DNA from: Candidatus Poribacteria bacterium
Lineage (GTDB): Bacteria; Poribacteria; WGA-4E; WGA-3G
DNA length: 64,000 nucleotides
NCBI GenBank assembly: GCA_022826805.1
Contig: JAJDUH010000044.1
Span: 92,862-156,861 of the forward strand
Direction of reading: 5' to 3'
The position numbers and the translations under genes are program-made. The notes beneath the pieces are model-generated. The model searched no databases and had not been told where the DNA came from. It saw nothing but the letters and a program-made list of their open reading frames with translations. Positions 4,650 through 54,952 of this stretch are shown one piece after another (position 1 is the first letter of the stretch; each line of letters opens with the position of its first letter).

Positions 4650-4891
4650 GGTGTTCCACATCTCACATCCGCTTTCGTAGTATAAATTGTCAGTCTGTGC
4701 CACCATCGCACAAACCCTTAGTAAACCGGGGTTCCGAATCGTTGACGATTTGTCTTTATTTTCTCCAAGTGCCTGGGGCTGTGAAACGCGTAGAAAAATC
4801 CCTTGATCTTTGAAAATTCAACCGAAAGGTGATACGAATCGTCCAAACTTTAGTTACTTCTTAGACCCAACTCACGTTAGTATAGTTGCCT

Positions 4892-7800
4892 TTATTTCTG
4901 TATGATCATCTTCCGTGTAGCCGTGAAGTCGTCTGCGGTGAGGGTGTAAAAATAGATACCACTCGCAACAGACTCACCAACTTCATTCTTTCCATCCCAA
5001 TAGACGGCACGACTCCGATGTTGATAGATACCCGCGGGTTGATGTCCTACCTCTAACGTCCGCACTAACACACCCCTCGCCGTGTAGACACGCACCGTCA
5101 CATCCGCAGATTTCGAAAGTTGATACGGTATCCACGTCTCCGGGTTGAACGGATTCGGGTAGTTGTGGAACATGATTGTCTTTTTAGGGACAAACAACGC
5201 CAGCAACTGCTCCAGTTTTGCGATACCACTCCGGAAGGTCGGGGACCCATCATCCGCAGCACGCAAGAGGTCTAAGGCATCTTGAACCGCTTTAAACGTG
5301 ACGGCTGAGGGTAACGTAAACGTCGCAGGGGCTGCGGGTTGATTTTTTTCACCGAGATGCTCGGCGACAAGTGCGACGTCCTTCGCATCTACGACACCAT
5401 CTCCATTGACATCAGAGCGTGGGTTCACTGGGGTTTTTCTATCCCTATCCGATAGCACGATGAGGAGGTCTGTGGCATCGGTTTCTCCATCTTCGTTGAC
5501 ATCCCAAGCAGGAACAGTCGGGGCAGCGTTATCAATCGTGACGGTACCGGGTGGAATAACAGTGTATTCCGTGCCGGGGGCGAACCCGAAGAACCCGCTC
5601 CAACCTCCGCTCCTTTCGTAGACAGCGACTAACAGTGTATTATACCCCTGTTTCAGACTGACCAGGAACCTATCCTGAAAATCACCGGCTCCTCGATTCA
5701 CAGGATTGTTATGAACCAATTCTCCGTTAAGCCAGATCTTAACAGCGTCGTCACTGCCGACCATCATGGTCACTTGTTGATTTTTCGGTGATTCTATGGT
5801 GAGGGCACCGTAAGCCACGTGATCGTCTATATTACCAAATCCCAAGCCGGTGTCGTTTGCCATGTCATTGAGGTTGTCGCTGCCGGTCGCCGATAACTCA
5901 CCGGCTTTCCAGACTTTATCGCCGACGGGGTTTCCTTCGGTGGTACCGTTGGTAGCGACTTTCAGTTCCGTTACTTTTCCGTTACTGGCGACTGATAGGA
6001 AATCCACACCGGAACGCGCTGCCGCCGCGCCGCCGCTATCACCTGTTGACACGATCATCCACAACCAGGGACCTGTTATTTTGAGTCCGAGTCTGCTTGG
6101 CACGCCGGGACCAGGATTCCCTTCTGTCCGAATCGTGGTTTGGAACGGTAGTTGGTCTAAAGGCGAAAAGTCGGTTATCGCGTTGTTCCGCAAGTCGAGA
6201 CGTTCCAAGTTTCTGAGGCCTGTGAGGGGTGAGACATCTGAGATAACGTTGTTTTCAAGGTATAATACTTCCAGATTTTTTAATTCTGTGAGGGGCGAGA
6301 CATCTGAGATGACGTTCGCATCCAGATTCAACGTTCTCAAATTTTTCAGAGAACGCAACGCCGAAATATCTGATATTGTGTTATTCACCAATTCCAGCCA
6401 CTCCAGTTGTGTGAATTCCTTCAAGGGAGAGAGGTCCCTGATACTACAGTTATTGAGTTCAAGCCGCCGCAGCCGCTTGATCCCCTTTAGGGACGGAATA
6501 GTCGTTACAGAAGCATCGTTCCCGAATTCTATCCACTCCAACTTCGGTAATTGTGTCAAGGACGAGAAATCCGTGATAGGTGTATTCCAAGCATCTATCC
6601 GTTCCAGACTGGTGAGACTGGCGAGGGATGACACATCGGTGACGAGGTTTTCCGAAATGCCGATCCCCTCCAATTTTACCAATCCCTTCAATGGCGACAA
6701 ATCCGTGATGACGTTCTCTTCAAGCCCCAACCAGTCCACACTGAGCAGGTTTGCGAGGGGTGAGACATCCGAGATGACGTTATCCCGCAACTTGATGTTA
6801 TTCAGTCTGATCAATCCTTGCAGCGGGGTCACGTCAGAGATAGCGTTACGGCGGAGTTCTATCCGCTCCAGGTTCGTCGCATACTCTAATCCGATTAGGT
6901 CTTGGATGCCTCTGCCATCGGCACGGAGTTGTCTCAATTGTTTCATATCTTCATCCGTAATCGGGGCATTCGCGGCTTTACCGAGTGTTTGCGCAATCGC
7001 CGCGCGGAGGTTCGTATCTGGAATATAAACGGTGCCACCCAGTAAGGGTTGGGTTACTGGATTGACGGCAATAACCGGTGCCGGTACATCTGGTGAATGC
7101 AACGCTAAAACTACATCCGAAAATTGTGAGGTCCACACGTCCCGTTTCACGTTCCCACCATTGACGAGACCCGTTAAACCGAGCCCCTGTAAACTCAACT
7201 TCTTACCGATCTCTGAAAGAAACGCCCCTGTTTCTAAACCGATCGATGCAGCGGCGTATGCAGCGTCTACAGGTCCCTGATAAGTTTCATAGAAACGATG
7301 CACAGGTTCAATGCCTCCAAACACGCCACCTGTTTTTTCTAAAGAGGCCTCGTAACGTTTCGTATCTTCATCCAAAAGACGATCCATCGTGGGTTTATCC
7401 ACATAGAGACGTAAGGTGTGTGCTTTATCAAAACTCGGATTGCGCGTCTGTTCAATAACGCCTCGTACTGCATCTTCAAACCGTTTCATCCCTTCCGTGT
7501 GGCAACCGATACACGATAAACCGTTGTGGACAGCCGGATCACTCGCCGCCGGGTTGGACACGATGTTTGTCGGTGCAACATCTATCCGATTTCCAGCACC
7601 GTCTGAGATATAGTACGCCTGTAAACCGTTGGGAAGGTTGAACACCACTTCACCGCCATCCTGTTGGAAAGACAGTGGGTGCGTGAAAATGTTCTGCGTC
7701 CCAACGCTCCCCGCAAAGTCGTAACTCTTCCAGTAGGCACCATACCGAGACGTGTGTCGTTCTACAACGCGGTTATGATTAGAAACTCCCGAATCGTTGA

Positions 7801-8737
7801 AACCCGCGCGCCAGACGCGACGCCCCGGCGCATTCTGGAGATTCCGCAAAACGTCCACCTCAAGGGCCCGTTCTAATTCACGATCCGTCTGTGGTAGGTC
7901 AAGGATGTCATGATAGAGCGGCGGAAGAACAGCTGTCGCTAAGAACCAATCGACATAAACGTAAGGCACTTCGCAGTTCATCTCCTGACGCAGCTTTGTG
8001 AGTCTCGTAAACAAAACAGGGCGCTTTGTGGCATCAAACTTAATCGCGTAGGGATAAAGGGCTTCAATCTGTGTCCACGCGTCACGGATATCCCACTCAT
8101 AATCGCGCAAGTCGATGTAGAAGATCGTTTCGGCAGCATCAATCGGTTGCGGATTGATAATCTCAAATCCCCACGAGAGACTATTGACGAGTTTTGCGAG
8201 TGCGATTTTGTACGCATTGAGGGCTTCAAGCGTTTCGCCCGCGTTATAGAGATGCGTCATCGTGAAATACCGCGCGAAGGGACGGTCAAACACATCAAGC
8301 GTTGCCAAATGCCTCTGAATGGCAGTAAGCATCGCACCGGTTGTAATGAAGGTGATATCGTGTTGGACCTCCCAACTGGGCGCGCCTGCTTGAATCCATT
8401 TCCTAATGGTGCTAATTGCTGCAGCGGAAAGTTGAGGTTGTCCGAGGGGCATCCGTTTGATGAAGTCATTTTCAAGGAGCCGCGTGTAGAGCTCAGAGGT
8501 ACTGGGGCTACCTGGAACAACGGCACCCGTATTCACCAAACCGGTTGCCGACTCAATGACGAGATTTTCGGTAAAAGAGCCGTGGGTGCCGTGGCAGTTG
8601 AGACAGTTTTGTTGCAGGATAAGATACGCTTCTTGTGCAAGATCCTGTTGTGCAAATGCCGTTGTCCACGCTATGAGAATAAGTACTAACAGCGTTAGTG
8701 TATAAAGCATAGGGTTGGTTTCTCTTTGTGTTTTCAC
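4892..8737 (-). CDS. 1281-aa secreted multidomain surface protein (PSCyt-type cytochrome c domain, second CXXCH, about 13 LRRs, beta-sandwich domain, dockerin-like repeats, T9SS/FlgD-like C-terminal domain)
   Basis: A signal peptide is present. The N-terminus has CLNCHG followed by ..MPLG...IRKWIQAGAP, and a second heme motif is CIGCHTEG. Regular 22-aa LxxLxLxxNxIxDxSPL repeats follow, then DVNEDGETDATDLL and DVNGDGVVDAKDV. The C-terminus reads NYPNPFNPETWIPY...GIYFYTL. Confidence 0.85.
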   Translation of the reverse strand: MKTQRETNPMLYTLTLLVLILIAWTTAFAQQDLAQEAYLILQQNCLNCHGTHGSFTENLVIESATGLVNTGAVVPGSPSTSELYTRLLENDFIKRMPLGQPQLSAAAISTIRKWIQAGAPSWEVQHDITFITTGAMLTAIQRHLATLDVFDRPFARYFTMTHLYNAGETLEALNAYKIALAKLVNSLSWGFEIINPQPIDAAETIFYIDLRDYEWDIRDAWTQIEALYPYAIKFDATKRPVLFTRLTKLRQEMNCEVPYVYVDWFLATAVLPPLYHDILDLPQTDRELERALEVDVLRNLQNAPGRRVWRAGFNDSGVSNHNRVVERHTSRYGAYWKSYDFAGSVGTQNIFTHPLSFQQDGGEVVFNLPNGLQAYYISDGAGNRIDVAPTNIVSNPAASDPAVHNGLSCIGCHTEGMKRFEDAVRGVIEQTRNPSFDKAHTLRLYVDKPTMDRLLDEDTKRYEASLEKTGGVFGGIEPVHRFYETYQGPVDAAYAAASIGLETGAFLSEIGKKLSLQGLGLTGLVNGGNVKRDVWTSQFSDVVLALHSPDVPAPVIAVNPVTQPLLGGTVYIPDTNLRAAIAQTLGKAANAPITDEDMKQLRQLRADGRGIQDLIGLEYATNLERIELRRNAISDVTPLQGLIRLNNIKLRDNVISDVSPLANLLSVDWLGLEENVITDLSPLKGLVKLEGIGISENLVTDVSSLASLTSLERIDAWNTPITDFSSLTQLPKLEWIEFGNDASVTTIPSLKGIKRLRRLELNNCSIRDLSPLKEFTQLEWLELVNNTISDISALRSLKNLRTLNLDANVISDVSPLTELKNLEVLYLENNVISDVSPLTGLRNLERLDLRNNAITDFSPLDQLPFQTTIRTEGNPGPGVPSRLGLKITGPWLWMIVSTGDSGGAAAARSGVDFLSVASNGKVTELKVATNGTTEGNPVGDKVWKAGELSATGSDNLNDMANDTGLGFGNIDDHVAYGALTIESPKNQQVTMMVGSDDAVKIWLNGELVHNNPVNRGAGDFQDRFLVSLKQGYNTLLVAVYERSGGWSGFFGFAPGTEYTVIPPGTVTIDNAAPTVPAWDVNEDGETDATDLLIVLSDRDRKTPVNPRSDVNGDGVVDAKDVALVAEHLGEKNQPAAPATFTLPSAVTFKAVQDALDLLRAADDGSPTFRSGIAKLEQLLALFVPKKTIMFHNYPNPFNPETWIPYQLSKSADVTVRVYTARGVLVRTLEVGHQPAGIYQHRSRAVYWDGKNEVGESVASGIYFYTLTADDFTATRKMIIQK

Positions 8738-8777: not shown

Positions 8778-9650
8778 CTACTCCTTGATCTCAGTTACGA
8801 ATGTAATGATACCCGGTCGTGACCAGTTACGTGCCTTATCCGACCATGAAATCTCTATTGTATAGACAGTGCTATCTTTCAAAGGAAGCCCCTCGTCAAG
8901 CGCGAGAAATATTACCTTTTTATCTTGTATGAAGTGGGTCCATTCCATATCAACTTTTCTACTATCGTCAATGAGTTTCAGAATTACAGCGTCTATTTCC
9001 TCATCAAAAGTGAAAACAAAGCGATCAATGTCTGAGTTAACACCTATATCACCATGACTTATAGTAGAAGCAATTAAACGAGGTGATTGATTATCTTGAG
9101 GACCTGCTCCCTCTGCTGAAGTTATAAACGTGATGAGGACCACTCTGGCGTTCTGGTGTTCATCTTCAACTGTGCCAGTTATCGAATACGGGCTTTCCAC
9201 TTCTAAACCCTGCCCATCAAGCTTAGTCAGAAGTACTTCTTTCCCCTTAATAAATAGCGTCCATTTCAAGTTTACATTGTCTTTGTTGACAATCTTCAAG
9301 TCGGATTTACTGATTTTTTCATCAAAATTGAGCGTAATGTCCTCTAAATCAACATCGACATCAACCGCTCCAAAAGGTATACTGCTCTTCAAAAGTTTCG
9401 GAGCTACTAAGTCCCGAGCGCCACCATGAGGTGGCACGGGTTCTGGTTCAGGTCCCTCGACAATCGGCTCTGGTTCTGGAATCGGTTGTAGTTCTGGAAC
9501 GCGAACAGGCTCTGGTGGTTGTGGTTGGGTTTCAGTTTCTATTATCACGGGTGGTGTCGCGAAGATAGATTCTGATCCATCATTACTGCTATCTGTTGAA
9601 CAACCAACGATGCAAAGTATCAGTAAAAATATGAGTGAAAATTTCATCAA
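8778..9650 (-). CDS. lipoprotein with Pro/Glu-rich linker and two Ig-like (SbsA/Big_5-type) domains
   Basis: A lipobox is present (LILCIVGCSTD). Two internally similar domains of about 95 aa end in ITFIT and ITFVT. Confidence 0.75.
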   Translation of the reverse strand: MMKFSLIFLLILCIVGCSTDSSNDGSESIFATPPVIIETETQPQPPEPVRVPELQPIPEPEPIVEGPEPEPVPPHGGARDLVAPKLLKSSIPFGAVDVDVDLEDITLNFDEKISKSDLKIVNKDNVNLKWTLFIKGKEVLLTKLDGQGLEVESPYSITGTVEDEHQNARVVLITFITSAEGAGPQDNQSPRLIASTISHGDIGVNSDIDRFVFTFDEEIDAVILKLIDDSRKVDMEWTHFIQDKKVIFLALDEGLPLKDSTVYTIEISWSDKARNWSRPGIITFVTEIKE

Positions 9651-17971: not shown

Positions 17972-18000
17972 TTGCAAAAAACAGAGACACGTGATATAAT
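17972..18000 (+). promoter_or_regulatory. sigma70-like promoter with extended -10, driving the cobalamin riboswitch
   Basis: The sequence is TTGCAA, a 17-nt spacer ending in TGa, then TATAAT. It lies about 20-30 nt upstream of the riboswitch. Confidence 0.65.
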
Positions 18001-18021
18001 ATATGTATTACAATCGAATAA

Positions 18022-18215
18022 GCTGAACGGTTCAGGTGCCGGAAAAGCCGGAGAATAGGGAAGCGCGGTGAGAATCCGCCACGGCCCCGCCACTGTGAAC
18101 GATCATAAATATCCACTGAAAAAACCACTGTCAATTTACTGATGGGAAGGTTCAGCGGACTTTTGTAGGTGCAAACTACGTAAAAGATCGGAAGTCAGGA
18201 GACCTGCCTGAATCG
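18022..18215 (+). promoter_or_regulatory. cobalamin (B12-element) riboswitch aptamer
   Basis: The core is AATAGGGAAGCGCGGTGAGAATCCGCCACGGCCCCGCCACTGTGA, which includes the B12 box. Also present are CCACTG...GGGAAGG and GTCAGGAGACCTGCC. P1 is TTCAGG (18031-36) paired with CCTGAA (18207-12). Confidence 0.9.
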
Positions 18216-18355
18216 CGTTTCACACATCTGCTTTCGCGGGAAAGCAGTGGAACAGCGCGCAGCAATATCCTGTTAGACTACGGATCAAATACCAGCATAA
18301 GGTATGGAATTCTCACACATCATTACAGGATAAGACTTACACAGAATGTCGCCGT

Positions 18356-18414
18356 CCCCTCTGCTTCTCGGAGATGCTTGCTACAAAAAGCCACGAAAGC
18401 AGGGGTTTTTTGTT
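18356..18414 (+). terminator. riboswitch expression-platform terminator
   Basis: CCCCT(ct)GCTT pairs with AAGCAGGGG and is followed by TTTTTTGTTT. It ends 18 nt before the ATG at 18432. Its arms are also complementary to the hairpin at 18228-18247. Confidence 0.6.
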
Positions 18415-18431
18415 TCATTACGGAGGTTTTG

Positions 18432-19775
18432 ATGAACAAAGTTTTTTTCGCCTGGCGGCATTTATTGTGTTCACCATGTCACAAACCACTCTCACTCCTA
18501 CTTACAGGTATATTACTCCTAACGCTTCTCGTTAGTCCTGCCCTTGGACAAACAGAGGTACAAGACCTGGCGGTTGTCATAAATGCCTTGACACATCCCG
18601 ACTTGGGTATCACCGCTTCACTTTCACTCATCAATCAGGTGGAACCGAATGAAAGACGGGCGGTCGACAATGAAATACTCCGCTTCGGGATTGATCCTAT
18701 ACTGCGGCGGCGCGCAATTAGCCTCTCCATTCGTGGACATCTCGCGTATGTCCCGACTTTCAACTTACCCGTCACCGGCGGCACAAGTTCCGGCGACAAC
18801 ATCTTTATCATAAATTTGGAAGACCGAGAGTTTGTCGGCGAAATCCCGATCCAAGCGGGTACAACTCCGCAGCAGATCGCTTTCGTCAACGATCAGAAAC
18901 TATACGTCACGTGTGCAGCAACACATGAAGTGCATGTCGTTGACATTCCTAACCGTAACGTAACGAAGATTCTGACCGGCTCCTTCAACAAACCGACGGG
19001 CATCACGCTACTCAACGGCAAAGCTTACGTTTCAAATCCCGCATGGGAGTGGGATCCCGCTGCTGGGAAAGTAAACTATTACGATAGCACTGTCACAGTG
19101 ATTGATACGGAAACAGATTTCGTGTTGAAATCCATACCAGTGCCAACAAACGCAAGCACAATTGTTAACGATGGCGACTCTACCGTCATTCTCAAAACAA
19201 CTGGGAATTATAATGACATCCTGGGGCATCTCATTCTGATTGATACAGCGACCGATGAGATTGTCGAAACAGTTAAACTCGATTTCACGCCTGGCTCCAT
19301 CGCCCTTAATTCACAAAAGCAGCTGTTTATGCAAGGAAGCTGGCAAAATCCAGGTTTGCTCATTTACGATGTTGCAGCACGAGACTGGATCCGTGACGAA
19401 GACGATCCGATCGCTAATTTCAGCGACGATGCAGATGCGCCTATCAGCGGTTCCTTGGCTTTCGCACCCGATGGAAATCTCTATATCGCCAAGCCCGACT
19501 GGGGCGGCAGCGGGCAGGATTTCGTGCGCGTTATGAACGTGATAGATGCATCTCTTCTGAAAACCTATCACGTTGGACCCGGCGGCTCCATTGTCGGATT
19601 TGCACAGATCATTCCGCGCCCCGAAGATGTAAACAACGATGGATTTGTCAATGAGGCGGATTTAGTAATCGCGAGCCGGTTCTTGGGGGACGAGGGTCCC
19701 GGATTAGTCGCTGATGTCAATGGAGACGAAGTAGTCAATGTTCTTGATTTAGTGCTGATAGGTCAAGGACTCTAA
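18432..19775 (+). CDS. secreted beta-propeller (YVTN/YncE-like repeats) protein with C-terminal dockerin-like repeats
   Basis: GGAGG lies 5 nt upstream of the ATG at 18432. A signal peptide is present (LLLTLLVSPALGQ). Repeated blades are seen (KLYVTCAATHEVHVVD, KAYVSN.., VTVIDTETD). The C-terminus has DVNNDGFVNEADL and DVNGDEVVNVLDL. Confidence 0.8.
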   Translation: MNKVFFAWRHLLCSPCHKPLSLLLTGILLLTLLVSPALGQTEVQDLAVVINALTHPDLGITASLSLINQVEPNERRAVDNEILRFGIDPILRRRAISLSIRGHLAYVPTFNLPVTGGTSSGDNIFIINLEDREFVGEIPIQAGTTPQQIAFVNDQKLYVTCAATHEVHVVDIPNRNVTKILTGSFNKPTGITLLNGKAYVSNPAWEWDPAAGKVNYYDSTVTVIDTETDFVLKSIPVPTNASTIVNDGDSTVILKTTGNYNDILGHLILIDTATDEIVETVKLDFTPGSIALNSQKQLFMQGSWQNPGLLIYDVAARDWIRDEDDPIANFSDDADAPISGSLAFAPDGNLYIAKPDWGGSGQDFVRVMNVIDASLLKTYHVGPGGSIVGFAQIIPRPEDVNNDGFVNEADLVIASRFLGDEGPGLVADVNGDEVVNVLDLVLIGQGL

Positions 19776-19791
19776 CAACTGAACATTCGCG

Positions 19792-19812
19792 GGCGCGGTT
19801 TACAACCGCGCC
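19792..19812 (+). terminator. GC hairpin after the propeller gene (weak terminator / GTAGG-type palindrome relative)
   Basis: GGCGCGGTT-tac-AACCGCGCC is followed by TGTATTACTTTT. The T tract is poor. Confidence 0.4.
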
Positions 19813-19871
19813 TGTATTACTTTTAACGCCAAGAAATAGGCAACGGAATCGGTGATCTCAAAGGACACTGT

Positions 19872-21821
19872 ATGAGGCATTTTCTGAACCAGACCACAAC
19901 AATAGAGAAGGTTTGCTGGTGCCTGCCACTTTTCCTTTTCCTGCTCAGTTGTACCTCAGAACCTAAAAAGGAACCGTTCTCATGGAAAGTGACGTTTTTT
20001 TCATTGGGGGCAAAGGCACAATTGGGAGCAGAAGCACCGATACAGCGTCTGAATGCCTTTAATTCCGACGGCGTGATGGTTGCCCAACTCAATTTCCCCG
20101 CGCCGCCTCGCCAGACGGAATCGCTCTATTTTGAGTGGCGCGAAGGAGAAACCTACAGGTTTGAAGCGATCTTGTCAACAGGTGATGTGGATGTTCAAAT
20201 AGTAACTGCTCCGCGGACATACACACTGGGCACTTTAGAAATTGCCATCCCTTATGGCATTGCGACGCACTCGGATCCAGGAAACGTGTCAAACAACCAA
20301 GTTGCTCTTGTCTTGCACGAAAGCGAAATGACAGCCACAGTCGTTGTTACAAACGGAAAAACACCAGCAAACTTTGAAGTTGAACTTTGTCTACCACCAG
20401 CATTAACTGTTGTTCGTTTGCCTACAGACTGGAAGGCTGAAACAACTGATACTGGCGTCTGCCTCTCTACCACTGGCAGATTTCGTGTTGCATCGGAGGT
20501 GTGGTATCATGAGTTAGTCCTGAGGACCTCCACAGCCAATGACGCCAACAGTCAAAAAATTTTGGGGATGATTCGTTTCACAACAGATACTGGACAAACG
20601 TGGGAACAGCAAGCAACAGTGCAGTTACGTGTAGCAACCGTGCCAGAGATTGCTGAACATCTCTCAATAGCATCAATCGAGATGCCCACAGACGCAACAG
20701 GTACATCAGATCGGAGACAGCGGGAAGATACCATTTATTATTCACGTCCGTTATTCGGTTGGTTTGGAACATCGCAGACGAATCCATTCGAGCCGGTAAT
20801 GTATCAGACAGTCCGCCTCCTCAATCAAAGCGAGGAAACCATTCATGTAGTCGTATCATCAATCAACAGGGATCTGAAGAGTGGTGAAGTCGTAACATTT
20901 CTTGCACCACCGGAGTCAACTAACGGAGGCACGAATCAGAGCGTCGCCTTTGCGAGTCTGCCGGGTGGCGAAGTCACTGAGATTCCTCTACCTATCTATT
21001 TTCATCCGATTTACCTAAAACAGGGTAAGCCAGAACAAGCGACTCCTGGAGAATATACACGCGATATCGCCGTGAAGGTCTGGGGAAGCGATGTAACGAT
21101 TTTACGCGAAGAACGCTCACTGCGCCTGATTGTTCCGAACCAACAGGCACTCCTTGTTAGCTTATTGGCAATCATTAGCAGTAGCATCGGATTAGCAATC
21201 GTCCTAAAGTTGCACAAGCAACTGTTCGCCAGTTTCACAACGAAGCAACTCATCGTCATCGCACTTTTTGGCACAACGGTTTTTGTGGCAGTGATGGTCC
21301 CATCAACGCTGTTCCTTAACTTAATCCGTGCTGTCCTCGGACCGATCTCTGTACTACTGACGGGTTTGATAAATGAGACGCTTTACTATGCTTTGCTGAC
21401 TGCGCTGTTAATTTACATTAGCGGCGACCCCGAAAGCACCGAGCGTTCCGATTCAAGGTCATATAGTAAAGGTAGCGGTGTCATCTTGCTCGTCTCAGCA
21501 GTGCGTTTACTTCTCAGCGGTGTGACATTCGGGCAGTTCACACCAATGGCAATTGTTTATACTGGCACCAGTGTTCTCTTGTTAGAAACTGGCTTTCTGT
21601 TCGTGCGAGGACGGAGTTTGTTTACATGGGCAGTCGTGTTAGGTATGTGCGACGCGGTCGCCGTCTACGTCGATTTTCAAATTTCCATCTTGTTCTATCG
21701 GCTTTTTTACGCCGATTGGTATATTATTCTCCGGATTCTGATAGAGGGATTCGTCTATACATTTATCGGCGTCCTGCTCGGTGCAAAATTAGGACGCGGG
21801 CTCTGGCGTGTGGCAGATTAA
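19872..21821 (+). CDS. lipoprotein-type ectodomain (about 420 aa) fused to a C-terminal 7-TM (1+6) membrane module
   Basis: A lipobox is present (LFLLSCTSE). Seven hydrophobic segments were counted in the last 226 aa (21141-21818). No family was recognised. Confidence 0.75.
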   Translation: MRHFLNQTTTIEKVCWCLPLFLFLLSCTSEPKKEPFSWKVTFFSLGAKAQLGAEAPIQRLNAFNSDGVMVAQLNFPAPPRQTESLYFEWREGETYRFEAILSTGDVDVQIVTAPRTYTLGTLEIAIPYGIATHSDPGNVSNNQVALVLHESEMTATVVVTNGKTPANFEVELCLPPALTVVRLPTDWKAETTDTGVCLSTTGRFRVASEVWYHELVLRTSTANDANSQKILGMIRFTTDTGQTWEQQATVQLRVATVPEIAEHLSIASIEMPTDATGTSDRRQREDTIYYSRPLFGWFGTSQTNPFEPVMYQTVRLLNQSEETIHVVVSSINRDLKSGEVVTFLAPPESTNGGTNQSVAFASLPGGEVTEIPLPIYFHPIYLKQGKPEQATPGEYTRDIAVKVWGSDVTILREERSLRLIVPNQQALLVSLLAIISSSIGLAIVLKLHKQLFASFTTKQLIVIALFGTTVFVAVMVPSTLFLNLIRAVLGPISVLLTGLINETLYYALLTALLIYISGDPESTERSDSRSYSKGSGVILLVSAVRLLLSGVTFGQFTPMAIVYTGTSVLLLETGFLFVRGRSLFTWAVVLGMCDAVAVYVDFQISILFYRLFYADWYIILRILIEGFVYTFIGVLLGAKLGRGLWRVAD

Positions 21822-22069: not shown

Positions 22070-23767
22070 ATGAAGCGAATTCAATTTTTTACTCTGCTCT
22101 GTCTGTTTATCGTGTCGTCCATCAGTATTGTGACAGCCGATATGGACATCACATGGGTACGGACAGGTGTCGTACTTGAAGTTCAATCCAAAGACGGTGT
22201 TAAAGGCGAAATCAACGTCGCGACGATGTCCAAGGGCACAACGCATCCGTTAACCGAGCCCCCCACAATCCAACGAATTGATGCAAACCGTGTTCTGCTA
22301 CAGTTCGTTTGGCAACCGAACGAGAATTACCAATTTCGCTTGCGTAATAGCGAAATAACGACGACTTCACCGCTGAAGCCGGAACCCTATCTTATCCGTA
22401 CCGTTGCGTTAGATGGACTTCTATCGTTGATGGAAAACCTACGTCAACCCGCAACACCATCAGCAGTCGCCTTAGGAATCGGAAACGTGTCTAACAGAGA
22501 AAAATTGGCAATTGCGACGAACAGTGGTCACCTTGCGATCCTGCAGCCAATTACGGGTGAAACGCTTTGGAAAACTCGCATTTCGGAAGGCTACGTGAGA
22601 CGAATGGCGTTCAGTCCTGATAATACCTTGCTCTACGTTGGGGAACAGGCAGCAGATGGATTCATTTACTGCTACGATCTCACAGGTGATACACTAACAC
22701 TCCGCTGGAAATATCGTACCGCTGACGACATTGAAACCTCCACACCAAACGACCCAGGCAGTGTCTACGCATGGGTAAGCTACCCGGGTCCGTCTTGCAT
22801 GCGAACACTGATGGACGGCGATCTTCTGGTTGCGAGTGTACATTCATGGACAGAAAACGGGACGCCACTTAAGAAATCTCAACTCTATAGACTTGATAAC
22901 GAAACAGGAAACGTTATCTGGAAATGGCCCCATGACAGCGCGATCTCAAGAATAATTCGCTGGTTTGACGTAAGTGCTGACGGAGAAACAATCGCACTTG
23001 TAACAGATGCCGGACACAATTTACAAGGAGCGACAGGTAAAAACGGTGCTGGCAACGGAAAACTTGCTCTCCTTAACGCGAAAGATGGATCAGAAAAATG
23101 GCATACCGATATTGAACCCCTAACCCCCTATTTCGCACAGGTTACGTTTTGGCGTGGGGTGAGCGTATCGCCTGATGGTAAGTTTATCAACGTCACAACG
23201 GACGACGGGCGGGCATTCATTTTCGACGCGAATAAGCCCGAACCGATATGGAGCGAAAACTTGACGACCCCATTAGAGGTGAGCGGTATCCCGATTGTTG
23301 CAACTTCAGGAACAATTGGAGCGACGGATGCCGCGGCACTCTTTGTCACTGGCGATACATATATCCCCTATCATCTCCGAAAAGGCGCGCAACGACCTTC
23401 GGCATCACACCCAAATGGGATGACGCTGTTCGCCTACTCGTGGACCGGTGAAAAAGTCTGGCAGTGGCAACTTGAGAACATGCCACAAGGCTTACGGATC
23501 GATGCGAAGGATCGCTATGCCCTGTTATCTGTTTCTAAGCGTACTCAGGATCCAAATGAGAGTCTCCACGGCGTGTCGATGTTTGACCTGACAGCAGAAG
23601 GAAGCGGTTTATCGAAATACCTATATACCTACCGCACAGAGGGGCAACTCCCTTATGATACACTCGCGATTAGTGCAGATGGTGCGCTTGTCGTTGTGGT
23701 TGAGGTGCCGACCGCGATGCCAGATGAGACGCTGCGCGGGAAGAACCGGGTGCATGTGCTGTACTGA
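22070..23767 (+). CDS. secreted PQQ/WD40-like beta-propeller protein
   Basis: A signal peptide is present. Repeated motifs are G.TLWKTRI, GNVIWKWPHD, GSEKWHTDI and GEKVWQWQL. Confidence 0.8.
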   Translation: MKRIQFFTLLCLFIVSSISIVTADMDITWVRTGVVLEVQSKDGVKGEINVATMSKGTTHPLTEPPTIQRIDANRVLLQFVWQPNENYQFRLRNSEITTTSPLKPEPYLIRTVALDGLLSLMENLRQPATPSAVALGIGNVSNREKLAIATNSGHLAILQPITGETLWKTRISEGYVRRMAFSPDNTLLYVGEQAADGFIYCYDLTGDTLTLRWKYRTADDIETSTPNDPGSVYAWVSYPGPSCMRTLMDGDLLVASVHSWTENGTPLKKSQLYRLDNETGNVIWKWPHDSAISRIIRWFDVSADGETIALVTDAGHNLQGATGKNGAGNGKLALLNAKDGSEKWHTDIEPLTPYFAQVTFWRGVSVSPDGKFINVTTDDGRAFIFDANKPEPIWSENLTTPLEVSGIPIVATSGTIGATDAAALFVTGDTYIPYHLRKGAQRPSASHPNGMTLFAYSWTGEKVWQWQLENMPQGLRIDAKDRYALLSVSKRTQDPNESLHGVSMFDLTAEGSGLSKYLYTYRTEGQLPYDTLAISADGALVVVVEVPTAMPDETLRGKNRVHVLY

Positions 23768-23891
23768 TTTTGTAGAACGAAAATTAGTGTTGAAAAATTC
23801 TGCCCTGCTCTATATACTTATTACATCTACGAAAATCAGTTGTCGCTGAAAAAGAAACGATTAAGATGTCTCAAATCAATCGGAAATCAAA

Positions 23892-25115
23892 ATGCAAGAC
23901 TTTACAAACACAGAGTTGTTACAAATCATCGAAAACGATGAAGCTGATCGCGTTGAGTTCAAAGAGTCTTTATCTGGCAGTGCGCCAAAAGATATCCGGG
24001 AAGCAATCTGTGCTTTTGCTAATGATTTACCTAACTATGCCAAACCGGGCTTCGTTTTCGTCGGAGTAAGAAAAGATAAGACTATTGTAGGCTTTTCAGT
24101 TACAGATCAATTGCTGCGGCAATTAGCGGACATGAAAACTGATGGAAATATTGTGCCGCCACCATCACTGACAGTGGAAAAGCGTTTACTGCAAGGCAAA
24201 GAAGTGGCGGTAGTTAAAGTAGAACCATCCAATTCACCTCCGGTTCGATGCAGAGGCGCGATCCATATCCGAACTGGGCCCCGCCGAGATATCGCCACAG
24301 CACAAGATGAGAGTATTCTTAATGAAAGACGGAGATCAGGAGATTTGCCCTTTGACTTGTGTTCTATTCCAATTGCTAGTGTGTCAGATCTCAACTTAGT
24401 CCAATTTAGGTATGAGTACCTACCCCAAGCATTTTCCTCCGAGATATTAGAGGCCAATGACCGAACCTTGAATGAGCAATTAGCTGCCACAAAGATGATC
24501 ACTTCCGCCGATCAACTTACTGCCACTGTGCTCGGAATTCTCACGCTTGGAAAAAATACGCAGGATTTCCTGCCTGGTGCGTACGTACAGTTCCTCAAAA
24601 TTGATGGGAATGAACTCACCGATGACATCCTTGACAGCGAAGCAATACGTGGTTCAATCCCTGATCAGATCCGCCGTTTAGACGACAAACTGATGGCGCA
24701 TAATCGTATTGCAGTTGATATTACGTCGGGCCCTCTCGAAAAGCGAACTGCCCTCTATCCAATAGAAGCAGTGCAACAAATTACCCGAAATGCTGTTATG
24801 CACAGGACTTATGAAGCGACGAATGCACCAGTCCGTGTCCATTGGTACAACGATCGGATCGAGGTTTTAAGTCCTGGTGGTACATACGGAAGGGTAACTG
24901 TTGAAACTTTTGGGCTGTACGGAGTGACCGATTATCGCAATCCGAATTTGGCGGAGGCAATGAAAACCCTTAATTTAGTACAGCGTTTTGGGGTTGGAGT
25001 ACAGATAGCGAGAAGGTTGCTGGAAGAAACGGGACACCCAGAGCCGGAATTTAGAGAAATTGGGGGCAACGTCCTCGCTACGATAAGAATGGTGCAACAG
25101 CCTAAGGAGATATAA
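23892..25115 (+). CDS. AlbA_2 (Schlafen-like) + HATPase_c_4 putative DNA-binding ATP-binding protein (RecG-like regulator family)
   Basis: The N-terminus (E.DRVEFKESL....IREAICAFAN..G) is typical of AlbA_2. The C-terminal region (NAVMHRTY...) is typical of this family. Confidence 0.8.
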   Translation: MQDFTNTELLQIIENDEADRVEFKESLSGSAPKDIREAICAFANDLPNYAKPGFVFVGVRKDKTIVGFSVTDQLLRQLADMKTDGNIVPPPSLTVEKRLLQGKEVAVVKVEPSNSPPVRCRGAIHIRTGPRRDIATAQDESILNERRRSGDLPFDLCSIPIASVSDLNLVQFRYEYLPQAFSSEILEANDRTLNEQLAATKMITSADQLTATVLGILTLGKNTQDFLPGAYVQFLKIDGNELTDDILDSEAIRGSIPDQIRRLDDKLMAHNRIAVDITSGPLEKRTALYPIEAVQQITRNAVMHRTYEATNAPVRVHWYNDRIEVLSPGGTYGRVTVETFGLYGVTDYRNPNLAEAMKTLNLVQRFGVGVQIARRLLEETGHPEPEFREIGGNVLATIRMVQQPKEI

Positions 25116-25117
25116 CA

Positions 25118-26185
25118 ATGCCTGTTCCAGTCCTAACTTTTTTCAACAATAAAGGAGGTGTTGGCAAAACATCCCTTGTCTATCATCTGGCATGGATGCT
25201 ACACAACCTCGGTCATCGAGTGCTGGCCTGTGACCTTGATCCACAGGCAAATCTTACGGCTGCGTTTTTAGATGAGGAAGGTTTGGAAAGCCTCTGGGAC
25301 GAAAGTAATACCGCCTCGGTCCCTAGAAACACAATTTTCCAGTGTGTAAAACCGCTAATAGAAGTTGGTGATCTGCACTTGCCTCATCTTCAATCAATTT
25401 TATGGCAATTGGACTTCGGACTGAGTGATCTAAAATTGATTCCAGGCGACTTAGCGCTAGCAGAATTTGAGGACACCCTATCTGCTGAATGGCCAAATGC
25501 TATGGGATCCACCAGTCTTCATAGATCCTTTAGAATACTAACGGCGTTTTCGACTATTATGCAGCAGAGTGCTACGGAAATGAACGCCTCAATTATTTTA
25601 GCTGATGTTGGACCCAATTTGGGTGCGATCAACCGCTCCGCATTGATCGCAAGTGATTATGTTGTGGTTCCACTTGGAGCAGATCTATTTTCGCTCCGCG
25701 GGCTACGAAACCTCGGTCCAACCCTCGAACGATGGCGAGAGGATTGGCAACGCAGACGAAATAACTGGTTTGATTGGCAACACAGGCAAAATAACAAGAA
25801 TATGCCGAATTTCCCCCTTCCAGAAGGAGGCATGAAACCTATCGGGTACATAATGCAGCAACACGGCGTGCGTTTGGAACGTCCTGTTAAAGCTTACGAT
25901 AAATGGGTTAACCGAATGCCCGAAGAATACGCACGAAACCTGCGAGGAAATGAGACAGGTCCCTACGCTGCGACTCCAGAAAAGGATCCAGTAAATTCCT
26001 TAGCTATTCTTAAACACTATCGTAGTCTCATTCCTATGGCACAAGAAAAACGTAAACCCATTTTTCATCTCACCACAGCAGATGGAGCTTTTGGGAGCCA
26101 TGCAGCCGCTGCTAATATGGCGCGCCAAGATTTCAAAATTTTGGCAGAGAAAATAGAGGAAAGAACAGGTATTAAAAGGGTATAA
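25118..26185 (+). CDS. ParA/Soj-family P-loop ATPase with long Trp/Arg-rich insertion
   Basis: A deviant Walker A is present (FNNKGGVGKTS), followed by DLDPQANLT. The start lies 2 nt after the upstream stop, and its AAGGAG sits inside the upstream gene, indicating translational coupling. Confidence 0.85.
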   Translation: MPVPVLTFFNNKGGVGKTSLVYHLAWMLHNLGHRVLACDLDPQANLTAAFLDEEGLESLWDESNTASVPRNTIFQCVKPLIEVGDLHLPHLQSILWQLDFGLSDLKLIPGDLALAEFEDTLSAEWPNAMGSTSLHRSFRILTAFSTIMQQSATEMNASIILADVGPNLGAINRSALIASDYVVVPLGADLFSLRGLRNLGPTLERWREDWQRRRNNWFDWQHRQNNKNMPNFPLPEGGMKPIGYIMQQHGVRLERPVKAYDKWVNRMPEEYARNLRGNETGPYAATPEKDPVNSLAILKHYRSLIPMAQEKRKPIFHLTTADGAFGSHAAAANMARQDFKILAEKIEERTGIKRV

Positions 26186-27090: not shown

Positions 27091-30000
27091 TTATTTAAGA
27101 ATTACCATCCTACGCGTGGTTTTAAGGTGCCCCACTTGCAGCGTATAAAAATAGCTACCACTCGCGACAGGTTCGCCTGCAGCATTACGGCCATCCCAGT
27201 ATGCAGCTCGAGATGAGGTCCGGTAGGTTCCAGCCGCCTGGAAGCCGAGTGATAACTGTCGAACAAGTTCTCCTTTTAAACTATAGATATGGATATGGAC
27301 ATCTGTGTCTTCGGCTAAATCGTAAGGTATCCAAGTCTCCGGATTGAAAGGATTTGGATAGTTGGCAAGAAGCTGGGTCGTTTCAGGGTTTGTTGACCCG
27401 GATAATGCGTATTGCGGTGCAGCGGGATCCACCGGTTGCTCAATACCAAGTGTAAAGTCTCCAGGCATATCTAACCCTGTGACGACAGCTTGAATTTTTG
27501 AATTCTTGAGGTTTGCCCACTGGATTTTTCCACCCGAGTTCGTCCAATACAACTTATCGCCTACACTATCAACGGCAATGCCAAAAGGAATACCCTGGAT
27601 TGAGATAAGCTCCTCAACGTTTGTGCCATCAAGGTTGGCACGCTTTACTGCTCCCATCTTCGCGTCTATCTTTTCTGTCCAATAAATCTTACCATTTACA
27701 ATAGTTATACGTCCCAGGGTTGCTAAGTCTGTAACCAATTCCTCTCGGTTTCGTCCGTTGAGGTTAGCACGCCAGAGGCTGTCCGGTTCTGCATAGTAGA
27801 TTTTACCGCCTCCCACATCCAAAGCAATGGCTTCTGGCGAATTCAAGTTTCGAATTAGGTTTTTAATTGACTTCCCGTTGAGATTGGCGCGCCGAATCCT
27901 CCCATGTGAATCCGTCCAATATAGTTTTCGGCCCACAGTATCAATAGCAAGGTCCAGAGGAATTCCCACTCGCGGTGAAGCAAGCATCTCAAGATTTGAA
28001 CCGTCAAGGTTCACACGATGGATTTCCCCTGTTTCATCGCTTGTTTTCCGTATGAAGTAGATTTTACCGTTCGTCGTATCTACAGCAACACTCGTTCCAT
28101 TCCGAACGCTCGGAGCTATCGTCTCCACTTTCGCACCCACGAGACGCTGAAGCTTACCAGACCTCGGGCTTACCCAGTACATTGGGGGACGCTGCGCTGC
28201 GGGGACGCGTATTTTAACACTTTTCTTGGGAGCCTCTGGTACCAAAACGTTTAACGCGAGATGTGTGGGTGTCCCTAAACCCGTAACAACATTTTGAATC
28301 CCTGAACCGTTGAGATTGGCCCTCCGAATTCTCCCACGGGAGTCTCCGTAGTAGAATTTCTCACCTATACCATCAACAGCTATACCCTTGAGAAAGACAT
28401 CTTCGGCTGAGATGAGTTTTTTAGGATATCTGCCATCAAGATTAGCACGTTTTACTACCCCGATATCAGCTTTCACCTGTTCCGTCCAGTAAATATGATT
28501 ACCAGCAACAGCGATGCCCCCGATTTCTCTCACGCCTGTGACTAATTCTTCTGCCTTTTCACCGTTGAGGTCGGCATGCCAGATACTGCCCTGCTGTGTC
28601 CAATAGAGTTTGCCACCTGCCACATCCAAGGTTATCGTCTTTGGTGAATCTAATTTTTTGATGAGGTTTTTAACCACCTTTCCCTTGAGATTTGAACGCT
28701 GGATCACCCCACGCGAGGTGGTCCAGTATAACCTGCCCCCTTTACTATCAACGGAAATACTGAGAGGAATGCTCGGTAAGGACTTCAACTCTTCAACTTC
28801 TGAACCGTCAAAGTTCGCCCGATAGATTTTTCCGGCTATCCGAGTTGTTTTCTCTGTCCAGTAAATTTTTTCACCTACTGTATCCATGGCGAAACTGGTT
28901 ACATTTTGGAAGTTTACCGCCACATTTTCCACCTGAGCACCTGTGAGGTATTGTAGGATTCCGAGCTCTGTGTTTAGCCAATAAATCGTTGGGTGCTTTG
29001 ATTTAGTAATATGTGCCTTCACTTCCCCACGAGCACCTGGCGAACCATAGTTTGTAGACAAAAAGTTCTCTCGTACGTTTGATGCCATCCAACTGGTCGC
29101 AAGGCTGCCATCTGGAACGGTTCCTGTTACGTAATCAATCACGCGGTACATCGAAACCGGAAATTCGGATGGCTGGAGGCCCGAACTACGCTCTGGTAGG
29201 GACCATGATAAGTGCTTTTGAGAGCCAGCGTTCTGAACTCTATCTATAACTTTCCATCCCGCATAGGGCTGAGTCGACGGGATCACTTCCCTGTCCAAAT
29301 ACGTCCCCGTGAACAGTAACGCGAAACGATTGTTCTCAAGCGTGATGCGTTTCTTTGGACTGTAAAGTTCTATCCACTGATTATCGGAAGGGGTTTCATG
29401 ACGTCCCCACATAATTTCACTAATGATAAGATCTCCAAACTCGACTTTCGTCCTGGGGTGCACAATGAGTTCGATAGTACCGCCCTGCCCGTCACTTCTA
29501 AAACTATCAAGCGTCTGGTTAATACGGTAAGACAGTGTTCGCAGTCCAGCATTATCCCCTCTGAATTCTGAACGCTTAAGAACCACGGGGTTAGCCTCAA
29601 TAAATGTCTGCCAATCCGGATAGATTATCTTTACTTTGCTTTTTTGAATAGAATGATTTTGACTTCGGCTCAAGACGATAAACTTGCCAGTTTCAACCAT
29701 TATGGAGTTAGCGGTCAGAGGGAAATTCACAGTTATTGGATTATCGTTAAGAGAGATAGACGCATTTTTCAATGTCGTGAGCGGACTTATATCAATAATG
29801 GCATTATTCTTGAGGTCCAACCACCTTAAGTTTTCTAATCCAGCGAGCGGACTAACATCAACAATAGCATTTCTCGAGAGTTTTAACCGCTTTAAGTTTT
29901 TCAATTTTGCAAGAGAACTCACGTCAGTAACGGCGTTGTCACGGAGATCTAAGACCTCTAACTGTGTCGCATATTCCAGCCCAGTGAGATTTTTTATCTC

Positions 30001-30195
30001 AGTGTTCCGAGCATATAGCAACATGAGGCGTTGCATTGCCTGCCTGCTGATAGGTCCGCCTGATGTTATGTTCAACTGCTTTCGAACCACCGCTGCTAAA
30101 TTCACATCCGGTATATTAACAATTTGGGCATTTACGATGTTAAACGAACAACTAAAGACGAAAAAAGTAACAAGAAATGTGCAAAATTTTTTCAT
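27091..30195 (-). CDS. 1034-aa secreted protein (LRRs, lamin-tail-like domain, two six-bladed YWTD/LDL-receptor class B propellers, T9SS/FlgD-like C-terminal domain)
   Basis: A signal peptide is present, followed by LRRs (L..L..LDLRDNAVTDVSSL). The motif ISEIMWG...NQWIELYS is LTD-like. I counted 12 blades with (I/L)YWT(E/D/Q/N)...ANL(N/D)G motifs. The C-terminus reads NYPNPFNPETWIPYDL...GSYFYTL. Confidence 0.85.
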   Translation of the reverse strand: MKKFCTFLVTFFVFSCSFNIVNAQIVNIPDVNLAAVVRKQLNITSGGPISRQAMQRLMLLYARNTEIKNLTGLEYATQLEVLDLRDNAVTDVSSLAKLKNLKRLKLSRNAIVDVSPLAGLENLRWLDLKNNAIIDISPLTTLKNASISLNDNPITVNFPLTANSIMVETGKFIVLSRSQNHSIQKSKVKIIYPDWQTFIEANPVVLKRSEFRGDNAGLRTLSYRINQTLDSFRSDGQGGTIELIVHPRTKVEFGDLIISEIMWGRHETPSDNQWIELYSPKKRITLENNRFALLFTGTYLDREVIPSTQPYAGWKVIDRVQNAGSQKHLSWSLPERSSGLQPSEFPVSMYRVIDYVTGTVPDGSLATSWMASNVRENFLSTNYGSPGARGEVKAHITKSKHPTIYWLNTELGILQYLTGAQVENVAVNFQNVTSFAMDTVGEKIYWTEKTTRIAGKIYRANFDGSEVEELKSLPSIPLSISVDSKGGRLYWTTSRGVIQRSNLKGKVVKNLIKKLDSPKTITLDVAGGKLYWTQQGSIWHADLNGEKAEELVTGVREIGGIAVAGNHIYWTEQVKADIGVVKRANLDGRYPKKLISAEDVFLKGIAVDGIGEKFYYGDSRGRIRRANLNGSGIQNVVTGLGTPTHLALNVLVPEAPKKSVKIRVPAAQRPPMYWVSPRSGKLQRLVGAKVETIAPSVRNGTSVAVDTTNGKIYFIRKTSDETGEIHRVNLDGSNLEMLASPRVGIPLDLAIDTVGRKLYWTDSHGRIRRANLNGKSIKNLIRNLNSPEAIALDVGGGKIYYAEPDSLWRANLNGRNREELVTDLATLGRITIVNGKIYWTEKIDAKMGAVKRANLDGTNVEELISIQGIPFGIAVDSVGDKLYWTNSGGKIQWANLKNSKIQAVVTGLDMPGDFTLGIEQPVDPAAPQYALSGSTNPETTQLLANYPNPFNPETWIPYDLAEDTDVHIHIYSLKGELVRQLSLGFQAAGTYRTSSRAAYWDGRNAAGEPVASGSYFYTLQVGHLKTTRRMVILK

Positions 30196-54212: not shown

Positions 54213-54297
54213 TGGGCGAGGAGGGACTTGAACCCTCACGAGGCGTAACCCCAATAGATCCTAAGTCTATCCTGTCTACCAATTCCAGCACCCGCCC
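54213..54297 (-). tRNA. tRNA-Leu (anticodon TAG)
   Basis: I hand-folded the cloverleaf. The acceptor is GGGCGGG/CTCGCCC, the anticodon arm is ATAGA-CTTAGGA-TCTAT, a long variable arm is present, and the T-arm is GAGGG-TTCAAGT-CCCTC. Confidence 0.9.

Positions 54298-54878: not shown

Positions 54879-54952
<74 letters not shown>

Follow-up and report, generated by a model that had tools for sequence, protein, structure and literature searches.

The 64,000-nucleotide (nt) stretch of Candidatus Poribacteria DNA analysed here, called the window and the reference for all coordinates unless a locus is named, carries on its forward strand a cobalamin riboswitch followed by three genes, designated open reading frames (ORFs) 1, 2 and 3. 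Poribacteria are dominant, uncultivated sponge symbionts, and the riboswitch with the genes behind it probably represents a cobalamin-repressed operon for corrinoid acquisition in a member of this group. A search of the window against Rfam with cmscan returned the Cobalamin riboswitch family (RF00174) at 18017-18225 (+) with 105.6 bits and an E-value of 2.1e-25, well above the gathering score of 31.5 bits; the match spans model positions 1-189 of 189 without truncation and is the sole riboswitch in the window. An earlier note on this DNA had recognised the riboswitch, and every sequence element that it quoted is present at the position it gave. The riboswitch leads a gene on the same strand whose product is a homologue of the vitamin B12-binding protein BtuG, an arrangement also found in six other lineages with Btu-type operons.

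The product of ORF1 consists of a Sec signal peptide (residues 1-39 approximately), which ends in ...SPALG/QTE and is devoid of a lipobox cysteine, a seven-bladed propeller of the YVTN/YncE/DUF5074 type (approximately residues 45-393) and a type I dockerin (residues 398-443, nt 19623-19760). In its AlphaFold2 (AF2) model the core has a predicted local distance difference test (pLDDT) value of 85-95, and the overall value is 75.5. When this model was compared with the Protein Data Bank (PDB) by Foldseek, the comparison with BtuG-type propellers suggested by the earlier note was borne out, with ranks 1-15 all occupied by BtuG1, BtuG2 or BtuG3 (E 1e-14 to 5e-13) at template modelling (TM) scores of 0.77-0.81, normalised to the target; 1L0Q, a YVTN protein of an S-layer, came next (TM 0.60), and the E-values of generic propellers were about 1e-9. 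The entries in question are identified as BtuG1, BtuG2 and BtuG3 by the depositors' paper (PMC10404256). A search of the PDB with the ORF1 sequence placed the archaeal S-layer propeller 1L0Q first, followed by the BtuG1/2/3 entries, while a profile of the ORF1 family reached BtuG1 with E 2.4e-19 over approximately 290 residues and BtuG2 and BtuG3 with about 1e-12 (hmmsearch). Alignment by hhalign of the sponge-Poribacteria family with BtuG1 and the riboswitch-linked relatives gave a probability of 99.9% (E 1e-32, 306 columns). The BtuG1 propeller itself scores 37.0 bits against PF16819 (DUF5074; gathering score 27.2 bits), and the Gracilimonas homologue scores 67.6 bits, which means that DUF5074 is the Pfam family of BtuG. 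Taken together with the profile and fold matches, this makes ORF1 a divergent BtuG homologue, beyond a mere analogue; on these comparisons it is remotely homologous to the BtuG/DUF5074 family. The earlier note had seen in ORF1 a BtuG-like protein of another lineage, and the kinship has held, as homology and not as the analogy that it proposed; its statement that the riboswitch controls a propeller gene rather than a known B12 gene was right about the position of the riboswitch and overstated the distance of the gene from the known ones.

A comparative scan of one genome per Genome Taxonomy Database (GTDB) species yielded 54 Poribacteria loci, with ORF1 identities ranging from 84% to 34%, together with 26 loci of other phyla. 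In 51 of the 54 Poribacteria loci a regular expression for the B12-core motif found the element on the strand of the ORF1 homologue, 330-430 nt upstream of it. Since the expression missed true riboswitches that Rfam found (at several non-Poribacteria loci and at Poribacteria locus L011), counts of this kind are lower bounds; Rfam confirms RF00174 in L011, L041, L047, L052 and L054. Retention of the B12 element upstream of homologues, by which the earlier note had proposed to judge its case, is therefore seen in Poribacteria and in other phyla as well. The promoter that the note had described as near-consensus ranks among the best sites of its region in a consensus scan, in which promoter-like sites are not enriched region-wide (14 found against 13.4 expected). 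A site of this kind, defined as TTGCAA or TTGACA, a 16-18 nt spacer and a TATAAT-like -10 element, with TG two bases upstream in most loci, occurs at a fixed position 5' of the aptamer in 43 of 52 Poribacteria loci, with a spacer of varying sequence.

The order riboswitch-ORF1-ORF2-ORF3 is kept in approximately 50 of the 54 Poribacteria species genomes, ORF2 following ORF1 in about 50 loci (identity 94% down to 38%) and ORF3 following ORF2 in about 48 (94% down to 50%). This order persists while the flanks change, with hisI upstream in some loci only and an HtrA-like gene or QueG elsewhere. ORF1 had been taken for the lone regulated gene; that part of the earlier description has to be withdrawn, given that 19872-21821 and 22070-23767, on the same strand, belong to the conserved unit. 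In four loci (L033, L034, L037 and L052) ORF1 and ORF2 abut or overlap, which argues for co-transcription. Among the loci compared, ORF2 and ORF3 were found only in Poribacteria, and their fixed place behind a B12 riboswitch constitutes a strong functional hint for these conserved, phylum-specific proteins. The features of the operon and its leader are collected in Table 1. At locus L052, a gene for QueG, the epoxyqueuosine reductase and itself a cobalamin-dependent enzyme, lies immediately upstream of the riboswitch (4426-5610, +).

Table 1. Features of the riboswitch-led operon and its leader, in window coordinates.
Feature	Position	Strand	Basis
Sigma-70-type promoter: TTGCAA, 17-nt spacer, extended -10 TGATATAAT	17972-18000	+	consensus scan, 10/12 with TG
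Cobalamin riboswitch aptamer (RF00174), full length, P1 = TTCAGG/CCTGAA	18017-18225	+	cmscan; also upstream of ORF1 homologues elsewhere
8-bp hairpin CTGCTTTC-GCGG-GAAAGCAG, directly 3' of P1	18228-18247	+	sequence; arms complementary to terminator arms
Predicted intrinsic terminator: stem CCUCUGCUU.UCG...CGAAAGCAGGGG and U-tract	stem 18358-18405, U-tract 18406-18415	+	minimum free energy (MFE) fold
Shine-Dalgarno (SD) GGAGG (18422-18426) and ATG start of ORF1 (18432)	18422-18434	+	sequence
ORF1, 447 residues: signal peptide, propeller, dockerin	18432-19775	+	Pfam, AF2 model, Foldseek, hhalign
GC-rich 12-bp hairpin after ORF1, no clean U-tract	19789-19815	+	scan; fold -31.9 kcal/mol, z -3.35
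ORF2, 649 residues: lipobox-like N-terminus, about four beta-sandwich domains, membrane domain of 6-7 helices (nt 21141-21821)	19872-21821	+	translation, AF2 secondary structure
ORF3, 565 residues: signal peptide, N-terminal domain of about 110 residues, PQQ/BamB/WD40-like propeller	22070-23767	+	Pfam PQQ_2, 43.8 bits

The relatives of ORF1 in other lineages stand in a recognisable transport setting. In L055 and L061 (Thermodesulfobacteriota) a riboswitch lies directly 5' of the propeller gene and TonB-dependent receptors follow downstream, while in L059, from an unclassified metagenome-assembled genome (MAG), the riboswitch is again directly 5' of the propeller gene and the contig stops just after it. 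Riboswitch-headed operons with a TonB-dependent receptor immediately before the propeller gene occur in L056 (Calditrichaceae), L057 (Deferribacteres), L063 (Gracilimonas) and L054 (a divergent Poribacteria MAG), with BtuR encoded in the operons of L054 and L057 and a Peripla_BP_2/ABC_tran/FecCD set in that of L056. No riboswitch was found in the 14 other non-Poribacteria loci scanned, which hold more distant YncE-like homologues, mostly proteobacterial. On this pattern of linkage, genomic context assigns the ORF1 family to B12 uptake, in agreement with its fold. The data indicate that the BtuG family and its riboswitch control extend to Poribacteria, Thermodesulfobacteriota, Calditrichaceae and Deferribacteres MAGs. 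In L055 (4632-6563) and L061 (7003-8139) the BtuG-like gene is separated from that of the TonB-dependent receptor by one or two genes with no Pfam match above threshold, and one of their products shows a faint MopE-like metal-binding motif; such genes add to the candidates for accessory B12 proteins.

BtuG-type capture has been described as a speciality of Bacteroidetes that aids competition in the gut (PMC6143338, PMC10404256). BtuG, a surface lipoprotein, was reported to be exclusive to Bacteroidetes on BLASTP criteria (PMC6143338), TonB transporters capped by a lipoprotein have been described as Bacteroidetes-specific (PMC10404256), and in the searched passages of a 2026 review BtuH and BtuJ, but not BtuG, are treated beyond Bacteroidota (PMC13616437). 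When compared to the BtuG proteins of Bacteroides thetaiotaomicron (BT1954, BT2095 and the BtuG domain of BT1490; PF16819), ORF1 is likewise an exported seven-bladed propeller of the same superfamily under cobalamin riboswitch control, and its relatives in other lineages adjoin a TonB-dependent receptor just as btuG adjoins btuB. The differences are that BtuG is held by a lipoprotein anchor, in place of which ORF1 combines a Sec signal peptide with a dockerin at its C-terminus, that a btuB-type TonB-dependent transporter gene is adjacent to btuG but not to ORF1 in the sponge-Poribacteria loci, and that the corrin contacts and the Pfam score of BtuG are not matched by ORF1, as detailed below. 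Poribacteria have been proposed to import B12 via TonB-dependent systems for the microcompartment-based degradation of 1,2-propanediol, with no receptor named (PMC5087111); the operon of the window supplies a concrete and testable candidate. A full-text literature search for Poribacteria with dockerin, or with cobalamin and riboswitch, returned nothing relevant. Judged from sequence, the new elements would be a BtuG-family capture protein in additional phyla, its anchorage through a dockerin-cohesin pair, and two conserved poribacterial proteins in the place of BtuB and BtuFCD.

With regard to anchorage, the dockerin-like C-terminus pointed out by the earlier note is recognised by Pfam as Dockerin_1 (PF00404) with 38.5 bits against a cut-off of 22.9, and it contains two Ca-binding repeats, DVNNDGFVNEAD and DVNGDEVVNVLD. 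It shares with the type I dockerins of cellulosomes (PF00404/PF00963) the duplicated Ca-binding loop-helix motif DVNNDGFVNEADL ... DVNGDEVVNVLDL. The cargo of a cellulosome is a glycoside hydrolase, whereas here it would be a putative vitamin-binding propeller, and the multi-cohesin scaffoldin is replaced by a single cohesin with a type IX secretion system (T9SS)-type sorting domain, or by a small lipoprotein, in a host lineage reported to be Gram-negative. In three loci (L041, L045 and L051) the gene directly 3' of the dockerin-propeller gene encodes a Cohesin domain (approximately 40 bits, cut-off 24.1) together with a T9SS-type C-terminal sorting domain, and these adjacent genes support the predicted tethering of ORF1 through its dockerin, as the earlier note had surmised. 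The gene order in L045 is ORF1-cohesin-ORF2-ORF3. At L041 a fragment of a transposase of the IS4/5 family follows the cohesin gene (8945-9409, +), which is probably why ORF2 and ORF3 are not adjacent there.

A search with the cohesin domain of the L041 type identified 39 proteins, among them small stand-alone lipoprotein cohesins such as P0412 and P0415. The contig on which P0412 is recorded has a length of 6,349,053 bp, as does the chromosome that carries the window-type locus L006; the P0412 gene is not near any B12 operon. The cohesin partner in the genome of the window was not located and is not part of the operon in the window's clade, where a stand-alone lipoprotein cohesin from another part of the genome probably serves as the anchor. 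The dockerin forms the C-terminal end of most sponge-Poribacteria versions of ORF1. The relatives in L054, L055, L059, L061 and L063 have lipobox-like LxGC N-termini and those of L056 and L057 end in T9SS-type sorting domains, so that at least three modes of attachment to the cell seem to be in use for this propeller: a lipid anchor, a T9SS-type sorting domain and a dockerin-cohesin pair. The homologues of one further clade (L047-L050, L052 and L053) have neither a dockerin nor a sorting domain, with no cohesin gene adjacent; that of L047 ends in the short tail ...TSWGKLKSSN.

The following mechanism may be proposed. A conserved sigma-70 promoter would drive a leader containing the RF00174 aptamer; with abundant intracellular cofactor the aptamer would be bound, the terminator at 18358-18415 would form and transcription would stop before the genes, and when B12 is scarce transcription would read through into them. 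ORF1 would then be exported by way of its Sec signal peptide, fold as a BtuG-homologous seven-bladed propeller and capture cobalamin or other corrinoids on one face, a binding activity that we infer from homology and context. Through its dockerin the propeller would be held at the cell envelope by an anchor protein with a cohesin domain; of such an anchor the cohesin and sorting-domain product of the next gene in the sister clades would be an example. ORF2 and ORF3, which take the operon position held by BtuB and BtuFCD in other phyla, may receive the captured corrinoid and pass it on; this is the least certain step and their role is potentially the most novel part. A bolder form of the proposal, which we put forward tentatively and consider doubtful, is that sponge-associated Poribacteria have replaced the BtuB and BtuFCD genes in the B12 regulon by an import route not described before, made up of a dockerin-tethered propeller, of ORF3 as a helper and of ORF2 as a new transporter, in which a beta-sandwich part would be joined to a domain like the S-component of an energy-coupling factor (ECF) transporter or BtuM, working with no dedicated ATP-binding cassette (ABC) module. 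If true, this would be the first use of a cohesin-dockerin assembly for vitamin scavenging.

The family of ORF2 has an invariant Cys27 in the lipobox-like context LLSC, a part of approximately 400 residues that is predicted to form four beta-sandwich domains, and a well conserved C-terminal domain of 6-7 helices. The window's ORF2 has no match in Pfam, NCBIfam or the PDB. Its AF2 model is poor (pLDDT 58, below 50 in the membrane part), and Foldseek with this model gave generic tandem Ig-like matches only (TM below 0.4), which are uninformative. In 3 of 15 diverse members of the family the top Pfam family is PF09819 (ABC_cobalt), a faint match at best (E 0.0011; 14.4 bits, cut-off 25.2); no such match was obtained with ORF2 of the window, and NCBIfam and PDB profile searches with the membrane domain came back empty. 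PF09819 is a family that we take to be of the ECF S-component type, and an S-component nature of the membrane domain is a lead, not a finding. The likeness to the solitary ECF-type S-components for B12 (BtuM, CbrT) and to PF09819 consists of a C-terminal domain of approximately 225 residues with 6-7 helices and of these faint matches; set against it are scores far under the cut-off, PDB profile searches with no match, and a 400-residue beta-sandwich ectodomain and a lipobox, which those families are not known to have.

As for ORF3, its profile found generic propellers only in the PDB. In gross architecture, and in its location within a B12 riboswitch locus, it resembles BtuK1 and BtuK2 (9S6C and 4R5O), BtuK being described as a PKD domain with a quinoprotein-like propeller in B. 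thetaiotaomicron (PMC13616437). An identification of ORF3 with BtuK was rejected, its profile having matched neither 9S6C nor 4R5O at E up to 10, so that the architecture alone is similar. An N-terminal module shared by ORF2 and ORF3, suggested by the motifs LYFEWREGETYRF and LQFVWQPNENYQF, was likewise discarded (BLASTP E 0.68, hhalign 0.7%). A divergent cohesin that would receive the dockerin was rejected at the sequence level for both proteins, hhalign with the Poribacteria cohesin profile giving 0.2% and 0.4%, and no Pfam cohesin match was found in either at E up to 10. On a separate matter, the Gracilimonas DUF5074 protein (L063, 5716-6774) matches BtuK1 (9S6C) with E 8e-8, which indicates that the BtuK and BtuG propellers are related in sequence.

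Several observations weigh against the operon being one for corrinoid acquisition, or against parts of the mechanism set out above. The best propeller-family match of ORF1, PF16819, reaches 21.9 bits, below the cut-off. An alignment with BtuG1, whose propeller sequence was rebuilt from printed alignments with its numbering checked at R141, T164, R244, E249 and Y290, shows the contacts R141, R244, E249 and Y290 not to be conserved in ORF1. An alignment with BtuG2, rebuilt in the same manner and with the numbering verified at 15 of the 16 named contacts, shows none of the 16 positions to be clearly identical, E55, F58, W149, Y239, W272, Y316 and Y335 being among the contacts not kept. Neither a TonB-dependent receptor nor a BtuFCD gene, nor any cohesin gene, was found by Pfam in the window, and Pfam, NCBIfam and PDB profile searches revealed no kinship of ORF2 or ORF3 with a known B12 protein. 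No T9SS structural genes were found in Poribacteria by Kamke et al. (PMC3909097), and ORF1 might remain periplasmic. In the leader, the terminator fold has a modest z-score of -1.44 and a double change in just 1 of the 11 pairs of its stem, and in the window's lineage the strong hairpin at 19789-19815 could free ORF2 and ORF3 of riboswitch control. As regards the contacts, about 60% only are common to BtuG1 and BtuG2 themselves (bioRxiv 10.1101/2024.02.16.580637). Residue types in ORF1 resemble those of BtuG2 near S131 (T145), W194-Y196 (N202-P-A-W205) and Q219 (N240), and the nearly invariant N51, P146, N240 and P287 of the ORF1 family sit in loops that bear BtuG2 contacts, which may merely reflect their belonging to the repeated blade motif.

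Of the alternative explanations, the one that survives best is a periplasmic system, which we regard as a serious possibility though clearly not the favoured one. ORF1 would dock to a membrane lipoprotein cohesin, act in the manner of a substrate-binding protein and hand B12 to ORF2, which would be a solitary ECF-S/BtuM-like permease assisted by ORF3, and B12 would pass the outer membrane through an unlinked TonB-dependent receptor. A plain Sec signal peptide with neither lipobox nor T9SS sorting domain in ORF1 would suit such an arrangement, as would the existence of stand-alone lipoprotein cohesins in Poribacteria (P0412, P0415) and the report of no T9SS structural genes in the phylum. The helical transmembrane segments of ORF2 point in the same direction, since they place this protein in the inner membrane with a large ectodomain, and PF09819 is the top family, if faintly, in 3 of 15 of its relatives. 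The strength of this last point is reduced by scores far under the cut-off and by window ORF2, NCBIfam and PDB searches that give none. Against a periplasmic location stand the cohesin proteins of L041, L045 and L051 with a T9SS-type sorting domain, a domain that marks surface proteins in other bacteria, and the homologues in other phyla, which are lipoproteins or sorting-domain proteins beside outer-membrane receptors, like BtuG.

In the corrinoid-acquisition operon as we read it, termination of transcription upon B12 binding is the likeliest mode of control, a preference held with some reserve, and translational control is the alternative. The aptamer is that of an ordinary RF00174 riboswitch, full length and equipped with a B12 box, and the first gene lies behind a terminator, as in other members with an intrinsic terminator; nothing unusual was found in it, and what sets the window apart is a long expression platform (approximately 190 nt) with two further conserved stem-loops. 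The GC-rich terminator stem of 9+3 bp, which is the predicted MFE structure, is followed by UUUUUUGUUU, the T-run at 18406-18415 being TTTTTTGTTT immediately after the stem, and stem and T-run recur across the L001-L040 group with variable loop insertions; in the most divergent Poribacteria clades the expression platform differs. Covariation was assessed in a 19-sequence alignment with slid partners and shuffles as controls. The proposed leader helices have 90% of alignment cells paired (terminator 88.5%) against 45-54% with slid partners for the whole structure, and double changes occur in 3 of 41 pairs, which is not above the shuffles. The hairpin at 18228-18247 is paired in 99% of the cells and nearly invariant across loci, its invariance precluding a covariation test of that helix; downstream of it a second conserved stem, ATCCTGT/ACAGGAT, surrounds a variable hairpin. 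The alternation between terminator and antiterminator that the earlier note had proposed from the complementarity of the arms has thus kept its first premise, the complementarity itself, and gained no covariation support, as the helices are near-invariant and the pairing is neither supported nor excluded.

Control exerted mainly on translation, through occlusion of the ribosome-binding site and not through termination, appears rather unlikely when these data are considered. Many RF00174 members do regulate translation, E. coli btuB among them, and no more than 30 nt hold the U-tract, GGAGG and ATG, all of them invariant, TTTCATTACGGAGG in the SD/ATG region being unchanged in 19 of 19 aligned loci. 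RNAalifold also pairs the invariant UGGAACAG (18248-18255, just 3' of the conserved hairpin) with UUGUUUCA (18409-18416, in the tail of the terminator beside the SD), which is likewise invariant. However, this long-range helix is devoid of covariation, its pairs being invariant or changed on one side, the SD itself is unpaired in the consensus fold, and the canonical GC-rich stem with UUUUUUGUUU is present and conserved.

It is less probable still, and in our view improbable, that the riboswitch controls ORF1 alone, with ORF2 and ORF3 transcribed separately for a purpose unrelated to B12 (the envelope or host interaction, for example) and their adjacency reflecting an ancestral order. Such a separation would be compatible with the stable hairpin between ORF1 and ORF2, with a gap between the two that varies from -5 to approximately 620 nt across loci, with riboswitch operons outside Poribacteria that have no ORF2 or ORF3, and with the lack of resemblance of these two to any known B12 protein. 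Related hairpins, GCGCGGTT...AACCGCGC, occur at the same place in L003, L004, L011, L015, L018 and L024, and that of the window may be a partial terminator or an element stabilising the mRNA, and may determine how strongly ORF1 is expressed relative to ORF2 and ORF3. It has no U-tract, however, and the ORF1-ORF2-ORF3 order persists from 84% to 34% ORF1 identity with both flanks changing, the genes abutting or overlapping in several lineages. In L045, moreover, a cohesin gene has been inserted between ORF1 and ORF2 with the cluster intact. The consensus scan lists no promoter-like site in either the ORF1-ORF2 or the ORF2-ORF3 gap of the window, whereas the Schlafen gene that follows (ORF4) has one of its own at 23790-23818.

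Finally, the propeller might not bind corrinoids at all and the riboswitch might repress a B12-independent substitute or an enzyme (with a lactonase or PQQ-type propeller activity), given that B12 riboswitches repress metE or B12-independent ribonucleotide reductases, that the BtuG contact residues are not kept, that weak matches also extend to YncE, hydrazine-synthase beta and propellers associated with pyrroloquinoline quinone (PQQ) and that ORF3 is PQQ_2/BamB-like, but this is very improbable considering that BtuG is the best structural and profile match by a clear TM-score margin, that relatives in five other lineages lie within TonB-dependent receptor operons, some with BtuR or BtuFCD-type genes (a setting of transport, unlike that of an isozyme), that export and tethering would be unusual for a metabolic substitute, and that no catalytic-family model reaches its cut-off.

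The surroundings of the operon are varied. Upstream of the riboswitch, on the opposite strand, lie hisI and trpE. ORF3 is followed by the Schlafen AlbA_2/HATPase_c_4 gene, which takes this place in about half of the Poribacteria loci, and by a gene for a ParA-like ATPase, the two lying at 23892-26185 (+). The rest of the window encodes leucine-rich repeat (LRR), ankyrin and sulfatase proteins and a C25 peptidase, typical of Poribacteria, several of them with FlgD_ig/T9SS-type C-terminal domains. Three very large proteins of secreted type are encoded at 4892-8737 (-; LRR, Dockerin_1 and FlgD_ig), 27091-30195 (-; LRR, a DUF5050/LDL-receptor-B propeller and FlgD_ig) and 39291-45686 (-; a 2131-residue gingipain-like Peptidase_C25 protein with FlgD_ig), and the T9SS-type C-terminal sorting domains in which all three end match the tail of the L041 cohesin protein. 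In addition, the region 31074-33317 (+) codes for a CotH-kinase domain joined to ankyrin repeats, and a cluster of five tRNA genes occupies 54213-55056 (-).

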